A DNA stretch of 64,000 nucleotides, taken from IMG/VR virus record IMGVR_UViG_3300028178_000001, positions 1-64,000 of that record. One strand, given 5' to 3'. The translations under genes were made by a program, and so were the position numbers. The DNA comes from a virus. The stretch's first letter is position 1; every line of letters begins with the position of its first letter. Positions 4,801 through 31,693 of the stretch are shown here, one piece after another. The notes beneath the pieces were generated by a model, which was not told the DNA's origin, searched no databases, and saw nothing but the letters and a program-made list of their open reading frames with translations.

Positions 4801-6450
4801 ATGTCAAAAATAAGTGAATACCCGGAATTAGTAACCCCAACGGATGATGATCTTTTGGTTACGGTAAACGCCGGGGTTACGAAAAAAATAAAACGGGCAA
4901 ACTTTTTAGGGAAGACTTTGAATTACATAGGGATTGCCGGGACCGCCGGATTTGGTGTTGGTATTTGTCCGAATACTTTGCCCGCCGGGATGCTTCCTCT
5001 TACCGGTTATGATGTGATTGGTAACGATCAATATGGTAACTACCAATACAGCGATGGTAGCATAATGGTTTGGGTACCGAAATTTTATTACAAAGTGTTG
5101 CATGACGGCTCTACAAACATTAACAAAGTACTTATTGCTTCCGTTTATGACTATCAAGACGAGACAGCGGCCAATACCGCCGGATATGCCTTACACCGCG
5201 CTTTTATTGATGGCGGAGTAATTAAAGACGGCTTCTTTATTGATAAATATAAATGGAGCTTAACTGCTTTTGTTAATGGTAGCGCGGGCATAGCCTCGTC
5301 TATCAAGAACGGTAATCCAATAACAAGTTCAAGTGAGGCGAATAGAGATGCGAGCAATTTGTATGCAGGTTCTTTCGCTGATTGCATTTCCAATTCCCAA
5401 ACCCCGGCTGAAAATTACGGTGGCGCGTGGGCAGCTGCAAAGAGTAGAGGCGCTAACTTTGCTGTTTGGTCAATGTTCATTCATTCTGCAATTGCATTAC
5501 TAAGCCTTGCGCATGGGCAAGCGGCAACCAGCACAACAAATTGCGCTTGGTATTTAACTAACAAAAATTACCCGAAAGGCCATAACAACTACGGCGCTGA
5601 TATTGATGATGCAACTTGCACATTTGCCGTGTGCGATGATGGATATTGGGCGGCACGTAACGAAGCGCGTAAAAATGGAAGCGGAACTCTTTTTGCTAAA
5701 ACAACCCACAACGGGCAAAATTGCGGCGTTGCGGACTTGCAGGGAGATCAATACCAAATAGCGCAAGGGTTGACGGCAATTGTATCAACACTAAATGTTA
5801 GCGGAACAGCAGATGTTGGCGGGACAGCGATAGAAGTTACTACGGATGCAGCGCATGGATTAACTACAAATAATTGGGTTATGCTAACAAGTGTTGGTGG
5901 GACAACAATATTGAACAGTAAAGTTTGGAAAGTAACGGTAACAGCAGCCGATAAATTTACAGTAGTATCCGGAGGTTTTGTTGCATGGACAAGTGCCGGG
6001 ACGGTTACGAAAGGGAAATTCTATGCACTTAAAGAAAGTGTAGCGATAAAAAATGTAACGGGATCAAATGCCGGAGCAACAGACCATTTTGGGGCAACTG
6101 GTGTTGCTGCATTAATGGAAGAGATCGTTCCTAATTTTGCAAATGGCGGAGGTTTTGATCAAAGATTCGGTAATAGTACAAACCAAGTTTTGCCATTTAA
6201 TACATCTCGTACAAATAACAGTTACAAGTTAGGCGCATTAGGTTTGCCAGACGTAAGCGGTATGAGCACGGGCGGGTCTAATTTATTTGGTTTGGATTAT
6301 TTTTACCAATATTTAAGAGACGAACTGTGCCCGATTCTCGGCGGCTATTGGGATGATTCAACGATTGCCGGAGTGTGGATTGTCGCTTTGAGTTACTATC
6401 GAGCTTATTCGGCTGGTTATGTTTCGGGCCGTGCGTGCCTTTATGTTTAG
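4801..6450 (+). CDS. Tail-fibre/receptor-binding protein with C-terminal C-type-lectin (Mtd/FGE-like) fold; DGR target
   Basis: Fibre-like N-terminus 'KISEYPELVTPTDDDLL'; 'HRAFIDGG', 'GVADLQG' and terminal 'GGYWDDSTIAGVW...SGRAC' match DGR CLec targets; avd lies immediately downstream. Confidence 0.8.
   Translation: MSKISEYPELVTPTDDDLLVTVNAGVTKKIKRANFLGKTLNYIGIAGTAGFGVGICPNTLPAGMLPLTGYDVIGNDQYGNYQYSDGSIMVWVPKFYYKVLHDGSTNINKVLIASVYDYQDETAANTAGYALHRAFIDGGVIKDGFFIDKYKWSLTAFVNGSAGIASSIKNGNPITSSSEANRDASNLYAGSFADCISNSQTPAENYGGAWAAAKSRGANFAVWSMFIHSAIALLSLAHGQAATSTTNCAWYLTNKNYPKGHNNYGADIDDATCTFAVCDDGYWAARNEARKNGSGTLFAKTTHNGQNCGVADLQGDQYQIAQGLTAIVSTLNVSGTADVGGTAIEVTTDAAHGLTTNNWVMLTSVGGTTILNSKVWKVTVTAADKFTVVSGGFVAWTSAGTVTKGKFYALKESVAIKNVTGSNAGATDHFGATGVAALMEEIVPNFANGGGFDQRFGNSTNQVLPFNTSRTNNSYKLGALGLPDVSGMSTGGSNLFGLDYFYQYLRDELCPILGGYWDDSTIAGVWIVALSYYRAYSAGYVSGRACLYV
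6322..6450 (+). other. DGR variable region (VR)
   Basis: Conserved scaffold codons interspersed with codons all ending in T/C (tat gat gat att att gct agt tac tat gct tat gct ggt tat), as expected from adenine mutagenesis of AAY template codons. Confidence 0.7.
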
Positions 6451-6497
6451 ATGCTTTAGCGAACGGTAGTGAGCGATAATTAAGAAGAACCAAGGAA

Positions 6498-6854
6498 ATG
6501 GCAGAATATCATTTAATAGTAAAAAAGATTAGAGACATGATTGTTTACAACAACATCATGCTGAAGCAATTTCCGAAACATGAAAAATATTTATTAGCAA
6601 ATAAAATAAGGGAGACCGGATATGACATATTTGAATCCGCCATAACAATCAACAAAAAGTTTCATAAGAAAACCACGTTTTCTGATTTGAACATAAAACA
6701 CGAATTGCTAAGGCAATTTGTAAATCTTGCGGCAGAACTAAAATACATAGATCTGCAAAAGCATAGGGTATCTCAAACACACATAGACGAAGTTGGCAAG
6801 ATGATAGGAGCATGGATAAAGAAAGAACTTGGAGACGATGAACAGAAGGGTTGA
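6498..6854 (+). CDS. avd: DGR accessory variability determinant (four-helix bundle)
   Basis: 118 aa; 'FPKHEKYLLA..IR', 'L..L...HELLRQFV', 'EVGKMIGAWIK' are bAvd-family signatures; adjacent to VR. Confidence 0.85.
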   Translation: MAEYHLIVKKIRDMIVYNNIMLKQFPKHEKYLLANKIRETGYDIFESAITINKKFHKKTTFSDLNIKHELLRQFVNLAAELKYIDLQKHRVSQTHIDEVGKMIGAWIKKELGDDEQKG

Positions 6855-7286: not shown

Positions 7287-8434
7287 TGAAAACCCCAAAT
7301 GAGATCTTAAAAGATTTAAGTGCTGATTTTATTGCAGGGCAAAGTAAGGTAACTTTCTTAGGACTAGAATCGGTTGCGCGGGGAATATTATCCGCTGTAA
7401 AGAATGTTTTATTTGAGTTGTGGAACGATTTGTTCCAACAAAAGCGGAAAATGTTTCTTGATACTTCCCAAGGAAGTGATCTTGTTGCTTTGGGGGCAAA
7501 GTTGGGATTAACTATAAACGGTGCATCAAAGAGTAGTAATATTCTATTATTTAACGGACCAACGGGCACCGTTATTGTCTCCGGCACCGCCGTAAAAAGC
7601 ATTATAAGCGGTGAACAAGTTGTTACTACAGAAGAAATTATTCTTGGGAAAAGTAATTTGTTGGTTGGAGATGTAATTTCAAATAGTATCGGGAATGCAG
7701 TTCTTGCCGAGAGCAGCAACACCGGCAAAAACACAAAAGTTGGTGTAAATGAATTAACTCAATTAGTTGTACCAATATCCGGAGTTACAGTAACAAATTT
7801 AGTCCCTTCAGTTGGGGGAGAAGATGCTGAAAGCGATGAAGTATTTAGAGAAAGAATAAAAAATTATATAAAAGTGCTTAATCAAGGCACGAAGGGTTTT
7901 TATTCGGCTTTGGCAAAAACGGCGGAAAGCAGCATTAATAAAGTTTTGGTAAAATCAGATCCGGTGAATATGGGAGTAAAATTATATTTACTTAAAAACT
8001 CATTTGCGCAATATACAAATACAGAATTGCTTGCGATTGCAGCAAGTGTTTATGATAATCAACGCGCCTGCAGTAATGTAAAATGTTTGAACGTATCTAT
8101 AAAATCAATCAGCGTTGTATTTGATTATGAGGGAGATGGGACAACAAGCCAAGACACGGCATTTAGTTTAGCCGCTTCCGGGATAGCAAATTACATTGAA
8201 TCGAAAGTGGATTTTGCAGCGACAATCATTTACAACGATATTCTAAACATTATTTTAGATACAACCGGAATAAAGAAATTGGATTTAAGATCATTACTTG
8301 TAAATAATTATCAAGCAGATATTTTATGCACGGAAATTGAAGTGCCAAGATTCACTTATTTTAAAATTACCGATACAACCACTGCTTTGGTTACAATAAA
8401 AGACTTAAACCAAAAACTGATATTGGCACAATGA
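7286..8434 (+). CDS. Baseplate J/gp47-like protein
   Basis: 'FLDTSQGSDLVALG', 'GGEDAESDEVFRERI' signature. Confidence 0.85.
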   Translation: MKTPNEILKDLSADFIAGQSKVTFLGLESVARGILSAVKNVLFELWNDLFQQKRKMFLDTSQGSDLVALGAKLGLTINGASKSSNILLFNGPTGTVIVSGTAVKSIISGEQVVTTEEIILGKSNLLVGDVISNSIGNAVLAESSNTGKNTKVGVNELTQLVVPISGVTVTNLVPSVGGEDAESDEVFRERIKNYIKVLNQGTKGFYSALAKTAESSINKVLVKSDPVNMGVKLYLLKNSFAQYTNTELLAIAASVYDNQRACSNVKCLNVSIKSISVVFDYEGDGTTSQDTAFSLAASGIANYIESKVDFAATIIYNDILNIILDTTGIKKLDLRSLLVNNYQADILCTEIEVPRFTYFKITDTTTALVTIKDLNQKLILAQ

Positions 8435-9018
8435 CAATAGAACGACTAAAAGATAAAGTCATAAAGTTTACTCCAACGTTTGTGAAGATAAACGAAATAT
8501 TGACAGGGTTGTATGTGTCTATTGCAACATCGGTTAGTTATGTCTTAACAGAAATTGAAGGTTTGCCAAACGCAGATTGGACCGGGAAAGGGTTGATAAA
8601 GAATTGTGAAGAAAGTGGAATTATTAACACAAAACGAAGCGAAGCAAGTCTTAAAACTGATTTAGCAAATAGATTTCCGATTAATCTAAAACGCGGTACT
8701 GAAGATGGAATTATAGATGATGTAAGTAAACTGTTAAATGTTAATAATGCGGTTGATCTTGATATACAGTTTTACAAATTCGACGAAAGCGGGATAATTG
8801 TTGGCAGCACTATTGTTTCAAATGCAAATTCAATTGTAGGGAGCAATAAAATAATTGTTGCCGAATACATCCCCAAAATATTAGATGAAACCGCAAGCCC
8901 TATTTTGGATGAAGACGCAGGGATGATGGGGCAGGAGGATAAAGAAATATTTAATTTTTACAGAAATGAAATTGAAGAACTAATACCCATTGACACAGAA
9001 TTAATTTTGGTAGACTAA
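8431..9018 (+). CDS. Baseplate wedge protein (gpI-like)
   Basis: Follows J; 'KRGTEDGI' resembles the KGT motif of gpI-like proteins. Confidence 0.55.
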   Translation: MTIERLKDKVIKFTPTFVKINEILTGLYVSIATSVSYVLTEIEGLPNADWTGKGLIKNCEESGIINTKRSEASLKTDLANRFPINLKRGTEDGIIDDVSKLLNVNNAVDLDIQFYKFDESGIIVGSTIVSNANSIVGSNKIIVAEYIPKILDETASPILDEDAGMMGQEDKEIFNFYRNEIEELIPIDTELILVD

Positions 9019-27866: not shown

Positions 27867-29132
27867 ATGAAAAACCAAATTATAACTTTGTTTACTAGTG
27901 ATTGGCATTTGGATAAAGACCCGAAAAGAAAGAGGAAAGCTTGTGAATCGCTTGATCAAATGGTGGATTATGTAAAAAATAATCAGGTCGATTATATAGT
28001 TCATGGCGGAGATTTTTGGGAAACAAGACAAAACTTTGGTGAAAACAGCGGAGTTGAGTATGGCTTCGAATACTTGCAAGAATTAGCCAAACACGTAAAA
28101 GCAGTTATTATAAATAAAGGCAATAATAACCACGATTACCCTCAAAGCATTAGTCTTCTTGCAAGATTAGGGGAAAATATCTTTGCTTACGAATACCCGA
28201 TTGCACTTGCCCTTTACCCGGATAATGGTAAAATAATAGGGGTTGATGTTTTAAGAGATGAGGATGAAATTATCGGGGGACCGGAATTTATTGTAAACCT
28301 TATGCCTTATCCCACAAAAGCGATGATAGTAAGGAATATGAGCATTGATGACAATAACAAAGAGTTTGGAGAAGTATTTGACGGGTTAATGGATATGTTC
28401 GGGATAACCAACGAAAAGTTTAAATGCCCGAAAGCTTTTTCCTTCCACGGAAACGTAAGAGGCAGCCGGTTAAGTACAGGGCAGCCGTTACCAGGGCAGG
28501 ATATTATTATTTCTCCTTTATCTCTACGAAAAGCCAAAGCGGATGTTTACGCATTCGGGCATATACATAACTGGCAAGAGTTTGCGCCGGATATGTTTTA
28601 CACAGGCCCATTGTACAACTGCAATTTCGGCGAAACGGAGCAGAAATATTTTATTATCAGTAAATTTGATCAGACGGATGGAGGGGTAAAAGTATCTTCA
28701 GAGAAAATAAAGTTTAAGACAGTCCGGCCGATGGTGAACGTTACAGCGGAATTCATTAACGGTGAGTTTGTGATTGACGAACAAGAAATGCCCGAAAATC
28801 CAGAAGTCAAATTTAAATATAAGATAAATGAAGATGAACAAAGCCTCGTTACAGAAGCCAAGAAAGATGAAATAAGAGCACGATATGGGGCGGATGTAAT
28901 TATTGCTTCACCCGATGTAATACCGGTGCAGCGGGAAAGCCGCAGCGAGAAGATAATGGAGGCAGAGAATTTGGCTGAGGAGTTTACAGAGTTTTGCATT
29001 GTAACGGGCAGAGATGAGGTGTTTAAGCCCAGCAATGACGGCAAAGAAAAAATACTCAAAACCGGATACCGGAAAAAGCTTGAATTGATTGAGCAGAATA
29101 TCCCCCCGGACGGAAAAGAAGAAGAGCTTTAA
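27867..29132 (+). CDS. sbcD: SbcD/Mre11-like metallophosphoesterase nuclease
   Basis: 'SDWH', 'GGDF', 'GNNNHD', 'FGHIH' motifs. Confidence 0.85.
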   Translation: MKNQIITLFTSDWHLDKDPKRKRKACESLDQMVDYVKNNQVDYIVHGGDFWETRQNFGENSGVEYGFEYLQELAKHVKAVIINKGNNNHDYPQSISLLARLGENIFAYEYPIALALYPDNGKIIGVDVLRDEDEIIGGPEFIVNLMPYPTKAMIVRNMSIDDNNKEFGEVFDGLMDMFGITNEKFKCPKAFSFHGNVRGSRLSTGQPLPGQDIIISPLSLRKAKADVYAFGHIHNWQEFAPDMFYTGPLYNCNFGETEQKYFIISKFDQTDGGVKVSSEKIKFKTVRPMVNVTAEFINGEFVIDEQEMPENPEVKFKYKINEDEQSLVTEAKKDEIRARYGADVIIASPDVIPVQRESRSEKIMEAENLAEEFTEFCIVTGRDEVFKPSNDGKEKILKTGYRKKLELIEQNIPPDGKEEEL

Positions 29133-29184
29133 GGAAGTGGAAAGAATTGAATAAAACAATAGAAGAATATTTGCCAAAATTACT

Positions 29185-29316
29185 TTATAACGGCTATCGG
29201 CTTAAACCGATTGCGACATAAAAATGAAATTTATAATTAACAGAAATATTAACAAGACTACCAAACTTCAAATCCGAATTGCTTTGCAATTCTATGATTT
29301 GAAGCCGTAGTTATAA
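29185..29316 (-). mobile_element. attC-like site 1 (132 bp)
   Basis: Minus strand: R'' TTATAAC, 5 nt, L'' CTT[C]AAAT ... L' GTTTAAG, 9 nt, R' GTTATAA. Confidence 0.8.
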
Positions 29317-29334
29317 TTTTGGCGGTGGGAGCTG

Positions 29335-29640
29335 ATGGAAATGAAAGAAGATAGAAGTGATTTTAACAACTACCCGCATAGAGTATTTGCGAATGTAGTA
29401 TTAATAAAAGGGAAAATTGCGAATTGGAAAACCGGTGATTACAGGTGGACTATAAAAAACTTTTTTATGAGCCATCAGCCGACCAACGTATACACAAATG
29501 AGAAGCAAGTAATTATTAAGAGCCGATCATTTATTGTAAGAAATAGAGAGGAACACAATAAGGCGTTTAGCGAGCGAGCAGTAAAATTTTACAGACAATT
29601 TAAGTTTGTAAAAGGATATAATTTGATGCGACCATACTAA
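29335..29640 (+). CDS. Hypothetical protein carried on an integron-type gene cassette
   Basis: 101 aa, GGAG RBS, bounded by attC sites and about 17-bp terminal inverted repeats. Confidence 0.7.
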   Translation: MEMKEDRSDFNNYPHRVFANVVLIKGKIANWKTGDYRWTIKNFFMSHQPTNVYTNEKQVIIKSRSFIVRNREEHNKAFSERAVKFYRQFKFVKGYNLMRPY

Positions 29641-29650
29641 CCGCCAATAA

Positions 29651-29781
29651 TTATAACAGCATGGAAATTAAGCGGCAGATAATGATTTCATATCAGAAAC
29701 ACATCCATCGAAATTATTCGTTGGCTCTGGAGAAGTTAGAGAAAATGCTTGTTATCTGTCCGCTTGAGTTTTTAGTTATTT
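29651..29781 (-). mobile_element. attC-like site 2 (131 bp)
   Basis: Minus strand: R'' AAATAAC, 5 nt, L'' ACT[C]AAGC GG[A]CAGATAA ... TTATCTG CC L' GCTTAAT, 9 nt, R' GTTATAA. Confidence 0.8.
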
Positions 29782-29802
29782 GGAAATTTTACGGAGAATG
29801 TA

Positions 29803-30057
29803 ATGATTAAATGTGCGATGAAAAAAGCCGGGATATTAAAGTTCGGAAGTTGTCACACATTAAGACATAGTTTTGCCACGCATATGTTACAACACGGGAA
29901 TGATATTAGAACGGTGCAAGAGCTGTTAAGGCATAAATCAGTTCGTACAACAATGATTTATACTCATGTTCTAGACACAGAAAAGAGAAGTGTTGAAAGT
30001 CCGCTTTCCTATTTATCAACACCAAAACCATTAACAAAAATATATAAGTTAGCTTAG
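29803..30057 (+). pseudogene. intI: C-terminal fragment of an integron integrase
   Basis: '[42 protein letters not shown]...V.SPL' is the IntI C-terminus; in-frame stop upstream, no N-terminal two thirds; LGH changed to LRH. Confidence 0.8.
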
Positions 30058-30070
30058 CAAAGAAAAATAT

Positions 30071-31693
30071 ATGCCAAGATCATTAACCCTTTGGGGACAT
30101 CCGTTGCGAGCTTGGCAGCAGAATGTACATGAAATAGCAATCCAAAAAGTTAAAGCGAAAGCGCAAGATGCCTTGTTTGTCGCTACACCGGCATCGGGGA
30201 AAACCCGCGCAGCTTTGCGGATAGCACACAAACTTTATTTCATGCAGTACATAAAACGCATTGTAATTGTTGTTCCAACCGAGAATTTAAAGGGACAATG
30301 GGCGGAAGATGCACATCTTTACGGTATTGATCTTGATCCAATGGTAGCGAACCGGATAGGGAAGGAAGGAAGCGATTATCACGGAGTTGTGCTTACTTAC
30401 GCGCAACTTGGGATGGATGCGGATATCCATAAACATTTTACGGAAACTACAAGCACGTTGGTAATATTGGACGAAATCCATCATGCGGGGGAAAGTAAAA
30501 CTTGGGGAGACGCACTTTTAACAGCTTTTGAGAATGCTTTTTTTAGAGTTTCATTAAGCGGTACGCCATTTAGAAAAGATAATAACCCGATACCATTTGT
30601 TAAATATGTGAATGATGTTAGTGTAGCTGATTATGTTTATTCATACCAGCAAGCAGTAGAAGATAATGTTTGCCGGGCAATTTACTTCCCGGCATACGAT
30701 GGAATAATGGAGTGGCAAACAGACGGAACTACCTACCGCCATAGTTTTGAGGAACAGATTAACCAGGCCAGAGAGAGCGAAAGATTAAGAACCGCGCTTG
30801 ATCCATCCGGCGAGTTTATGAAGCAGTTTTTTCTTGATGCGGATAAAAAGTTAAATGAGATAAGAAGAGGCAATCATCCGGACGCGGGGGGATTAGTTTT
30901 GGCCATTGATCAAGAGCATGCGGCAAGGATTAAGAAGATGATCTTTGAGCTAATAGGGGAATCACCGGTTATTGCGGTTAGTGATGATAAGAACGCGAGT
31001 AAACACATCAAAGAGTACAAGCGAAGAAAAGATAAATGGTTGATCAGCGTAAAAATGGTATCTGAAGGAGTTGATATCCCACGTTTACGTGTAGGAGTTT
31101 ATGCAACTAATGTAGAGAGCGAATTATTCTTTAGGCAGGTTACGGGAAGGTTTATAAGAGTATTGGCACACCTTAAAAGTCAAGATGCTTACTTGTACAT
31201 TCCCAAACGACATGAGTTAGTAAGATTTGCCAGAGAGATTGAACAGGAAAGAGACCATGCGTTAAACACAGCAAAAGAGAAGTGGGATAAAGATTTATTT
31301 GGGAAGGAAATTGAACCAAAGGAAAAAGAGAAAAAGGACTTCAAAGTAATTTCGGCGGAAGTTACCGGAACTTTGGAAATTAAAACAAATTTTACCGATA
31401 AGATCTCTACAATGTTTGGTTTGCCAAGGGGAAAAGCCCAACAAATAGCGCAGAACGTTGTACAGCAGCCAACCGCTGAAGAGATACCGATATTTGAGAA
31501 GATAAAGACGCTTAGAAAAGAGATAAATGACTTAGCTATGGTTTACGCCAAGAATAGAGGAAACGGCACGGTAGATTGGCAATTAGGGCATAAGGATTGG
31601 ATTAAGCTTGGTGGGAGAAGCATTGAACTTGAAACTATGCCGGAACTAATGAGACGGCGGAGATGGTTGCAAAATAATTTGCAGAAAAGTTAA
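30071..31693 (+). CDS. SF2 DEAD/DEAH-box helicase (ResIII-like)
   Basis: 'ATPASGKT', 'DEIHH', 'SGTP', 'EGVDIP', 'QVTGR'. Confidence 0.9.
   Translation: MPRSLTLWGHPLRAWQQNVHEIAIQKVKAKAQDALFVATPASGKTRAALRIAHKLYFMQYIKRIVIVVPTENLKGQWAEDAHLYGIDLDPMVANRIGKEGSDYHGVVLTYAQLGMDADIHKHFTETTSTLVILDEIHHAGESKTWGDALLTAFENAFFRVSLSGTPFRKDNNPIPFVKYVNDVSVADYVYSYQQAVEDNVCRAIYFPAYDGIMEWQTDGTTYRHSFEEQINQARESERLRTALDPSGEFMKQFFLDADKKLNEIRRGNHPDAGGLVLAIDQEHAARIKKMIFELIGESPVIAVSDDKNASKHIKEYKRRKDKWLISVKMVSEGVDIPRLRVGVYATNVESELFFRQVTGRFIRVLAHLKSQDAYLYIPKRHELVRFAREIEQERDHALNTAKEKWDKDLFGKEIEPKEKEKKDFKVISAEVTGTLEIKTNFTDKISTMFGLPRGKAQQIAQNVVQQPTAEEIPIFEKIKTLRKEINDLAMVYAKNRGNGTVDWQLGHKDWIKLGGRSIELETMPELMRRRRWLQNNLQKS

Follow-up and report, generated by a model that had tools for sequence, protein, structure and literature searches.

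A probable decayed integron with attC-like sites and a reversed cassette in the early operon of a lake-water phage

Integrons are understood as bacterial devices. In the 'inverted-integrase' integrons of Treponema, and of some Cyanobacteria and Planctomycetes, the integrase gene (intI) lies upstream of the array and reads into it. Phages of the T4 type carry, in their hyperplastic regions, the 'mobile regulatory cassettes' termed PeSLs, which consist of a promoter and a stem-loop and probably move by homologous recombination, with no known dedicated recombinase.

The inverted-integrase arrangement is alluded to in the survey by Cury et al. (2016), in which a CALIN (cluster of attC sites lacking an integron-integrase) is defined as two or more attC sites that lie in a span of 4 kb with no functional intI close to them (PMC4889954). 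In that survey 15 of 279 bacterial CALINs were found beside intI pseudogenes, and these were read as the product of integrase loss from a complete integron, with cassettes that could still be mobilised in trans (PMC4889954). Subsequently, Qi et al. (2023) described integron components in 21 of 10,705 NCBI phage genomes, including 17 CALINs, and demonstrated that five of six attC sites from phage CALINs were recombined by IntI1; that screen was one of NCBI phage genomes, not of metagenomic viral contigs (PMC9892861). Reported phage integrons are by this count rare, mostly CALINs, and of uncertain origin. A sequence-only reading of the locus described here had remarked that integrons are normally chromosomal or plasmid-borne, which overstated its rarity, given that phage integron parts had already been published (PMC9892861).

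The locus lies in a 92,107-bp IMG/VR viral record from lake-water metagenomes (CheckV completeness 100%), of which a 64-kb stretch of this phage genome, here called the window, was analysed. Between a gene for an SbcD-like protein, which is also kept in two sister phages (L005 and L006), and a helicase gene there is a gap of about 925-938 bp, occupied in order by a first attC-like site (W1), an open reading frame (ORF) of 101 amino acids, a second attC-like site (W2) and an 84-aa ORF that represents a truncated integrase gene (intI'). The features of this gap, and of the related contigs with which it was compared, are collected in the table. The sequence-only reading had described imperfect palindromes of 132 and 131 bp around a single 101-aa ORF, and a 466-bp cassette with complementary ends; when the sequence was read again, all of its coordinates and motifs for the locus were correct. 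A blastn search of the sbcD-helicase interval against 50,697 GenBank phage records returned no matches, and an Rfam scan of 28800-30300 at E values up to 10, with a library that holds no attC family, returned just two chance snoRNA matches.

Table. Features of the sbcD-helicase interval in the window and of related contigs
Feature	Position	Strand	Basis or remark
SbcD-like metallophosphoesterase gene, left flank, 421 aa	27867..29132	+	Pfam Metallophos PF00149, E 9e-9
Cassette-end-like sequence (..GCCAAAATTACTTTATAA) left of W1	29162..29190	+	Resembles L005 cassette ORF ends
attC-like site W1, 132 bp, TTATAAC...GTTATAA	29185..29316	+ ('bottom', recombinogenic)	Sequence, covariance models
Putative cassette unit, 466 bp: C, W1 hairpin, GTTATAA-TTTTGGCGG, RBS, ORF, ..TTATAA	29191..29656	+
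Cassette ORF, 101 aa, ORFan	29335..29640	+	GGGAG RBS upstream
attC-like site W2, 131 bp, TTATAAC...GTTATTT (R'' GTTATTT)	29651..29781	+	Sequence, covariance models
49-aa ORF inside W2, probably spurious	29661-29810		No match in Pfam/NCBIfam searches
Truncated integron-integrase gene intI', C-terminal 84 codons	29803..30057	+	TIGR02249 match
ResIII/SNF2-type helicase gene, right flank, 540 aa	30071..31693	+	ORF, Pfam
Family attC-like elements, L005	4487-4643, 4942-5098, 5312-5547		Family architecture
sbcD-helicase gap, L005			2.2 kb, five small ORFs, four family attCs
Family attC-like element, L006	4864-5088		Family architecture
sbcD-helicase gap, L006			1.5 kb, other ORFs, one family attC
Family attC-like element, L135	249-417		Family architecture
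L135 contig, 11 kb			Family attC, 73-aa cassette ORF, 65-nt spacer, full-length intI, all on one strand
L134 contig, 2.3 kb			Same order as L135 (cassette, spacer, intI)
Family attC-like elements, L219	5888-6036, about 6277-6502		Family architecture

Described attC sites are recognised by their structure and carry AAC/GTT at the cleavage site, extrahelical bases that include a conserved G, an unpaired central spacer and a variable terminal structure, over a length of 57-141 bp (PMC5371416). The layout of W1, W2 and their relatives agrees with that description in its extrahelical, central and terminal parts (EHB/UCS/VTS), and the lengths of the two sites fall inside the known range, some relatives reaching 225-236 nt. 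A G is bulged in W1 (29301), as are a T (29759) and a G (29766) in W2. Read along the minus strand, each site begins with R'' (TTATAAC in W1, AAATAAC in W2), followed by a 5-nt spacer, an L'' that holds a single additional C at position 16 (corresponding to G 29301 and G 29766 of the + strand), an L', a 9-nt spacer and an R' of GTTATAA, which is in every element the grammar that the sequence-only reading had assigned. The usual L'-R' spacer of an attC site is 6 nt. The cores of W1 and W2 are AT-rich variants of RYYYAAC/GTTRRRY that do not adhere strictly to the purine/pyrimidine pattern of GTTRRRY, a consensus from which GTTATAA departs.

In an alignment of six family members, neither ..ATAAC nor GTTA.. 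varies, and each of the five core pairs is 100% paired; the inner helix of 11 pairs is 93.9% paired, with compensatory changes on both sides at eight of them; and 95.7% of cells are paired over the proposed pairs as a whole, as against 34-50% in a control in which the 3' partners were slid by one to three columns. The unpaired G is likewise invariant in the family, with a constant distance of 16 nt to the 3' end of the 7-nt core, and the arms align between copies whose central parts are unalignable, as in a variable terminal structure. The resemblance of W1 and W2 to attC sites exceeds chance, and on structure and context together the two look like genuine attC recombination sites. Folding of the + strand as single-stranded DNA, a check that the sequence-only reading had proposed, bore out the hairpin for W2, where the minimum-free-energy structure is the full hairpin including the bulge (pfold 0.15), but not for W1, where local hairpins compete and the recombinogenic fold is disfavoured (pfold 3e-6). 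VCR sites with similarly low values, such as VCR126, still recombine (PMC5371416).

Other viral or metagenomic contigs carry five or more additional elements with the architecture of W1 and W2. A covariance model (R2) seeded with the copies on L005, L135 and L219 only, from which the copies of the window had been left out, returned W1 (37.2 bits, E 1.4e-5) and W2 (31.2 bits, E 2.4e-4) as its top two matches in the 64-kb window, both of them full-length and on the + strand, with the third-best match at 14.8 bits. A model of the whole family (R1) scored W1 at 123 bits and W2 at 121 bits and found no other copy in the 92-kb genome. When R1 was run on IntI loci from bacteria and metagenomes (about 0.69 Mb), it gave a single marginal match of 24 bits; it misses bacterial attC arrays, and as a generic test for attC sites it was rejected as family-specific. 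On the + strand, the layout of the family opens with an A-rich lead-in (GCCAAAAAA-like) and ..ATAAC; an unpaired spacer then separates these from the inner stem and a variable centre. The inner stem returns, interrupted by one additional T and one additional G, and is followed by 3-5 unpaired nucleotides, by GTTA(T).. and finally by TTTTTGGCGGG plus a ribosome-binding site (RBS). A pattern scan of IMG/VR for the extension GAGTTAT..TTTTGGCGGG yielded 25 stretches, among which the L005 contig and L219 were the only real members, the rest being coincidences in coding sequence.

The strand on which these sites would be recombined was assigned with the aid of a bacterial integron from Alteromonas ponticola (L104), which has its intI at 7941-8933 (+). 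The attC sites of that integron, read on the intI-sense strand (for example at 6702-6817), have the form CCTAAC...GTTAGG with an extra base in the 3' arm, and its cassette ORFs lie mostly on the opposite strand to intI. Because the extra bases of W1 and W2 sit in the 3' arm of the + strand, the assignment of that strand as the attC bottom strand, and of the minus strand as the top strand, is supported, and the relation between attC asymmetry and intI strand in L135 is the same as in the Alteromonas integron. The reverse assignment, with the + strand as top strand and the ORF stops in TTATAAC, was ruled out by the bulges in the 3' arms, by the side on which attI and intI lie in L135, and by the branch points described below. 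The minus-strand attC orientation of the sequence-only reading is thus upheld by the control; its further description of the locus as canonical integron geometry stands for the asymmetry of the attC sites relative to the intI strand, and fails for the direction of the cassette ORF. The cassette ORFs of the window, and likewise those of L005, L006, L134, L135 and L219, all have the intI-sense strand as their coding strand. Each comes after its own attC, and its stop is usually the TAA within the next ..TTATAA↓C core (the arrow here marks the putative cut, and below also a branch point). The order of parts in the cassettes of this family is therefore opposite to the canonical one, and their direction is that of phage transcription.

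That same co-orientation of all the ORFs, the position of every copy directly 5' of a small ORF, and the conservation of the extension GTTATAA(T)-TTTTTGGCGGG-GGAG, which provides an RBS and holds a -10-like hexamer, would also be expected if the repeats were regulatory, that is, stem-loop and promoter/RBS modules of small early genes in hyperplastic regions, akin to PeSLs, that are shuffled by homologous recombination, with the IntI fragment an incidental neighbour. A simple scan for promoters and terminators nevertheless gave no signal beyond that of shuffled sequence, and the sites showed no T-tract terminator; asymmetric bulges at a fixed distance from AAC/GTT cores are, moreover, a trait of attC sites rather than of terminators.

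The limits of the cassette unit were drawn from the AA↓C that is conserved on the bottom strand, from the complementary ends (GTTATAATTTTGGCGGT at 29310 versus ACCGCCAATAATTATAAC at 29640) and from branch points at 29191/2 and 29652. Its 101-aa product matched nothing in Pfam, NCBIfam or PHROG, had itself as the sole match among 5.8 billion clusters, and gave no Atlas lead and no homologue or fold lead. The short sequence to the left of W1 resembles the GCCAAAAAA..TTATAA ends of the cassette ORFs in L005.

The truncated gene intI' keeps the box II HxLRHxFAT motif, the catalytic tyrosine and its natural stop codon, and draws its RBS (GGAG) from the extension of W2. Its 84-aa product is IntI-type, as the sequence-only reading had claimed: it matches positions 245-314 of the 315 in TIGR02249 at 102 bits, versus 74 bits for XerC/XerD, a partial match that lies below the curated cut-off of 265 bits and so does not qualify as a full-length IntI, for which the IntI-specific insertion would also be required. 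It is 69-81% identical, over its full length and including the C-terminal tail, to a clade of integrases of 312-327 aa (P0001-P0014), of which P0001, P0002 and P0004, like the protein encoded by L135, pass the same cut-off at 338-341 bits. All 46 columns that are invariant in that set are kept by the fragment, and its divergence is that of an intact member (mean identity 71.9% versus 71-76%; private changes 2 versus 0-2). DNA homology to full-length intI begins at about 29803-29806, directly after the W2 extension, such that about 240 N-terminal codons have been lost and 84 of about 325 are left.

A six-frame HMM search found none of the missing 240 residues encoded upstream, and an HMM search of the whole 92-kb genome found no full-length intI; TIGR02249 has only a weak match to a tyrosine recombinase of 351 aa that is encoded at 16.4-17.1 kb. 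The notion that the entire sbcD-helicase gap is one degenerate full-length intI was also rejected, since the six-frame search recovers positions 245-314 alone and the 101-aa ORF has no similarity to IntI. No attI was found at the locus, and the spacer that is the candidate attI in L134 and L135 (see below) is absent from the window. With two attC-like sites 466 bp apart and a remnant of intI as the only integrase sequence, the locus corresponds to a CALIN, and not to a complete integron (intact intI, attI and at least one attC). Lacking an intact IntI and an attI, it therefore cannot act alone, and the term 'miniature integron' used in the sequence-only reading holds for its parts (attC-like sites, cassette and IntI fragment), not for a working integron.

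The truncated intI and the absent attI would also be in keeping with a one-off passenger, in which a piece of a host chromosomal integron was gained by illegitimate recombination and has been inert since; the fact that the IntI fragment shows no extra divergence would then fit a recent event. Fragments of sedentary integrons in Vibrio phages are interpreted in this manner. That functional phages can hold pieces of chromosomal integrons has been documented (PMC9892861). The distribution of the IntI clade and of the attC family argues against such an origin. A search of GTDB species genomes with P0004 returned no close IntI, the best match being 47% identical, so that those genomes hold no host integrase more than 47% identical to the clade; in JGI metagenomes, the successive identities are 100%, 65% and then 47% or less. 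One clade member is labelled as belonging to a Candidatus Doudnabacteria MAG. Both of the clade contigs whose context was read (L134 and L135, which encode the closest full-length IntIs) are phage-like: in L135, intI is followed 3' and on the same strand by genes for the small (TerS) and large (TerL) terminase subunits and for a portal protein. The spacer upstream of intI is conserved between these two contigs (TAAC TAACTTTA...ATAAC...TTT.ATAACTATATACAAAA) and is a candidate attI; the likeness of the right ends of the L005 and L006 arrays to it is limited to TAACTA and an A-rich run. L135, L134 and L219 have nothing else in common with the genome of the window, and the same IntI/attC system is therefore present on unrelated phage backbones, L135 and L219 holding the same attC family, which is contrary to what a single passenger would leave. 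The family is found with full-length or partial IntI on three separate backbones, a co-occurrence that also weighs against a purely regulatory role for the repeats.

The sister phages, whose helicases are 91-92% identical to that of the window phage, share with it both the locus and the attC family but differ from it in their cassettes, and neither retains an intI. The sequence-only reading had asked whether the sbcD-helicase interval varies in cassette content among relatives, and such turnover is what these phages display; it is not what an inert passenger would be expected to leave. The presence of the same architecture in two sister phages from other samples also bears on the possibility of an assembly artefact, that is, a chimeric join of phage DNA to bacterial integron DNA, which might be suspected because the record is metagenome-assembled and repeats of attC cores break assembly graphs. 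In four lake-water runs, contigs carry the arrangement of the window unchanged: in two of the runs, single contigs of 14.5 kb and 7.4 kb extend across all of 28300-30900 and are identical to the window there, and overlapping pieces from another two runs cover that interval. An artefact is accordingly exceedingly improbable.

Minority contigs from three runs (X1, X2 and X3) depart from this arrangement at the TTATAA↓C cores, with branches at 29191/2 and 29652. In X3 and X2, the sequence held in common with the window (from 29162/3, and thus the cassette-end-like stretch to the left of W1) stops at 29191 and 29192, respectively (TTATAAC↓), and two different attC-like 5' arms follow; in X1, the sequence ahead of 29652 (T↓TATAAC of W2) is not that of the window. 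These branch points fall at the AA↓C of the putative bottom strand rather than at the opposite core, and they fit both an exchange of the IntI type and the strand assignment given above; homologous exchange between conserved cores could be an alternative source of them. The variant data are Logan contigs, drawn from four runs that may belong to one campaign, and they contain no circle junction and no cassette-skipping joint, such contigs being unable to reveal rare circles, empty sites or other rare forms. Variant junctions at the cores inside a single population stand against an inert passenger which, taken with the distribution and turnover above, is unlikely. The same branch points fall outside the longer conserved extension, contrary to shuffling of regulatory modules by homologous recombination, and that account of the repeats is less likely still, to the point of being quite improbable.

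The locus of the window is, with good probability, a decayed phage-borne integron, consisting of a CALIN and an intI pseudogene, whose cassette family has been exchanged at a hotspot during the divergence of the sister phages and occurs elsewhere with an intact IntI on phage-like contigs. According to the mechanism proposed for it, an integron integrase would cut at TTATAA↓C, between 29190 and 29191 and between 29656 and 29657, and the unit between the two cut points would then be excised or exchanged. Any such exchange would presumably depend on a full-length IntI from this clade, acting in trans. Both clade members whose context was read are on phage-like contigs; a host integron, as suggested in the sequence-only reading, may be an alternative source. 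An integrase of this kind may have made the variant junctions, and the cassette may still be mobile today, provided that IntI is supplied in trans. The cassette gene, like every other in this family, points the 'wrong' way for an integron, towards intI and along with the phage operon. Its expression is therefore probably due to read-through from the early operon, or else to the -10-like GTTATAAT core, and not to an integron Pc promoter.

A broader reading can be offered, tentatively and at somewhat less than even confidence. It holds that there may exist a phage-resident integron lineage with its own IntI clade (at most 47% identical to any IntI of the GTDB species genomes), attI and attC family, and with reversed cassettes (attC first, ORF towards attI/intI) that are read through by the operon; that the lineage would shuffle small early genes at hotspots; and that the window would be an integrase-less member, exchanging cassettes in trans in the lake population. 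If that reading were true, site-specific cassette exchange would be one mechanism behind hypervariable early-gene islands, and the orphan cassettes would be candidate genes for host takeover or anti-defence. The system also offers a natural test of uncoupling the choice of attC strand from the orientation of the cassette.

The locus as such is not new in kind, since both phage CALINs and CALINs beside intI pseudogenes have been published. In the literature searched, no description was found of four of its attributes: (i) an IntI clade so far seen on phage-like contigs only (two contigs having been read); (ii) a single attC family on unrelated phage backbones; (iii) cassette ORFs systematically inverted relative to attC and intI; and (iv) cassette turnover at a syntenic hotspot in an early operon. 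What is at work here seems to be a gene-shuffling system that operates on phage early genes.

The locus agrees with the CALINs described in temperate and virulent phages (PMC9892861) in that there are two or more attC sites, the cassettes are small and have no known function, and a working integrase is missing in cis. It differs from those of Qi et al. (2023) in that a remnant of intI abuts the array, in that its attC sites form one homogeneous family common to phage contigs that encode a full-length IntI, and in that cassettes turn over at one locus among sister phages and all cassette ORFs are inverted. With the bacterial CALINs of Cury et al. (2016) it shares a cluster of attC sites adjoining a decayed intI; unlike them, it resides on a phage replicon, and its remnant is an open, RBS-preceded frame of 84 codons that is no more diverged than the intact members of its clade. 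With sedentary chromosomal integrons (the Alteromonas integron and the VCR type) it has in common an extra base in the 3' arm of the attC on the intI-sense strand, similar attC sites within one element, small cassette ORFs of unknown function and stop codons in the core. It differs from the Alteromonas integron in that the ORFs of the phage family share the strand of intI, terminate within the R' core and read towards attI and intI, and from sedentary integrons at large in the 9-nt L'-R' spacer of the phage family.

The inverted-integrase integrons, considered here in their general outline, resemble the phage system in that intI and cassette ORFs are transcribed in the same direction. In the phage system, unlike those integrons, the array is upstream of attI and intI and reads into both, and the asymmetry of attC relative to intI is canonical, with the ORFs flipped. 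As in the PeSLs of T4-type phages, small novel early ORFs and a stem-loop module vary between close relatives at fixed positions; unlike PeSLs, the units described here have the grammar of attC sites and travel with an integron integrase.

A segment of contig Ga0265297_10011189 (L135:249-1677), which shares with the window's genome a family of attC-like sites and an integrase clade but nothing else, looks like a complete integron residing on a phage contig. An attC, a cassette reading frame, a spacer and an integrase gene follow on a single strand, and genes for the small and large terminase subunits (TerS and TerL) and the portal protein are found directly downstream.

Features of the related contigs and of the window
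Feature	Location	Strand	Remarks
Family attC	within L135:249-1677	same as intI
Cassette ORF, 73 aa	within L135:249-1677	same as intI
Candidate attI (65-nt spacer)	within L135:249-1677		conserved between L135 and L134
Full-length intI, 326 aa	within L135:249-1677		340 bits on TIGR02249
Long family attC	L005:5312-5547
Long family attC	L006:4864-5088
Long family attC	L219:5888-6036
49-aa ORF	window:29661-29810		inside attC W2, overlapping start of truncated intI'
351-aa open frame	window:16399-17142	minus	weak IntI model match (32 bits, positions 12-181)
215-aa ORF	window:31847-32494		between helicase gene and 920-aa SbcC-like gene; weak HNH_3 and HTH matches

The long family attCs of the two sister phages (L005 and L006) and of contig L219 measure 149-236 nt, and harbor within their variable centre the ribosome-binding site and start codon of a cassette reading frame that runs on through the 3' arm and core. 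In L219 (IMGVR_UViG_3300028176_000007), a minus-strand array at 5000-6600 contains AT-rich attCs of the family alongside palindromes that are GC-rich, begin GCCTAAC and flank small membrane-protein-like reading frames; the mixture may reflect the acquisition of cassettes from another type of integron. No intI was found in the 13.5 kb of L219 covered by the analysis.

In both sister phages, a core-like ATAAC TAA directly precedes the helicase start codon (L005:5990-6003, GATAACTAAATG; L006:5990-6003, AATAACTAAATG) and overlaps the stop of preceding reading frames that are mutually non-homologous, whereas the window lacks this motif at that position (..AAAAATATATG); the motif may mark a secondary site of insertion or have arisen by chance. 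At the opposite edge of the gap, just left of attC W1, window:29158-29190 (ATAGAAGAATATTTG..) is similar to the beginning of the first reading frame in the L005 gap (L005:3847-3880, ATGGAAGAATTTG..), except that ATA stands in place of the ATG of that frame; it may be what is left of a first gene that has been lost.

Among the remaining reading frames of the window, the 49-aa ORF matched no family and is unlikely to be a genuine gene. The 351-aa frame encodes a tyrosine recombinase of the usual phage kind, not an integron integrase, and suggests a temperate lifestyle for the phage. The 215-aa ORF may be an insertion of the homing-endonuclease type within the operon that holds the helicase and SbcC-like genes.
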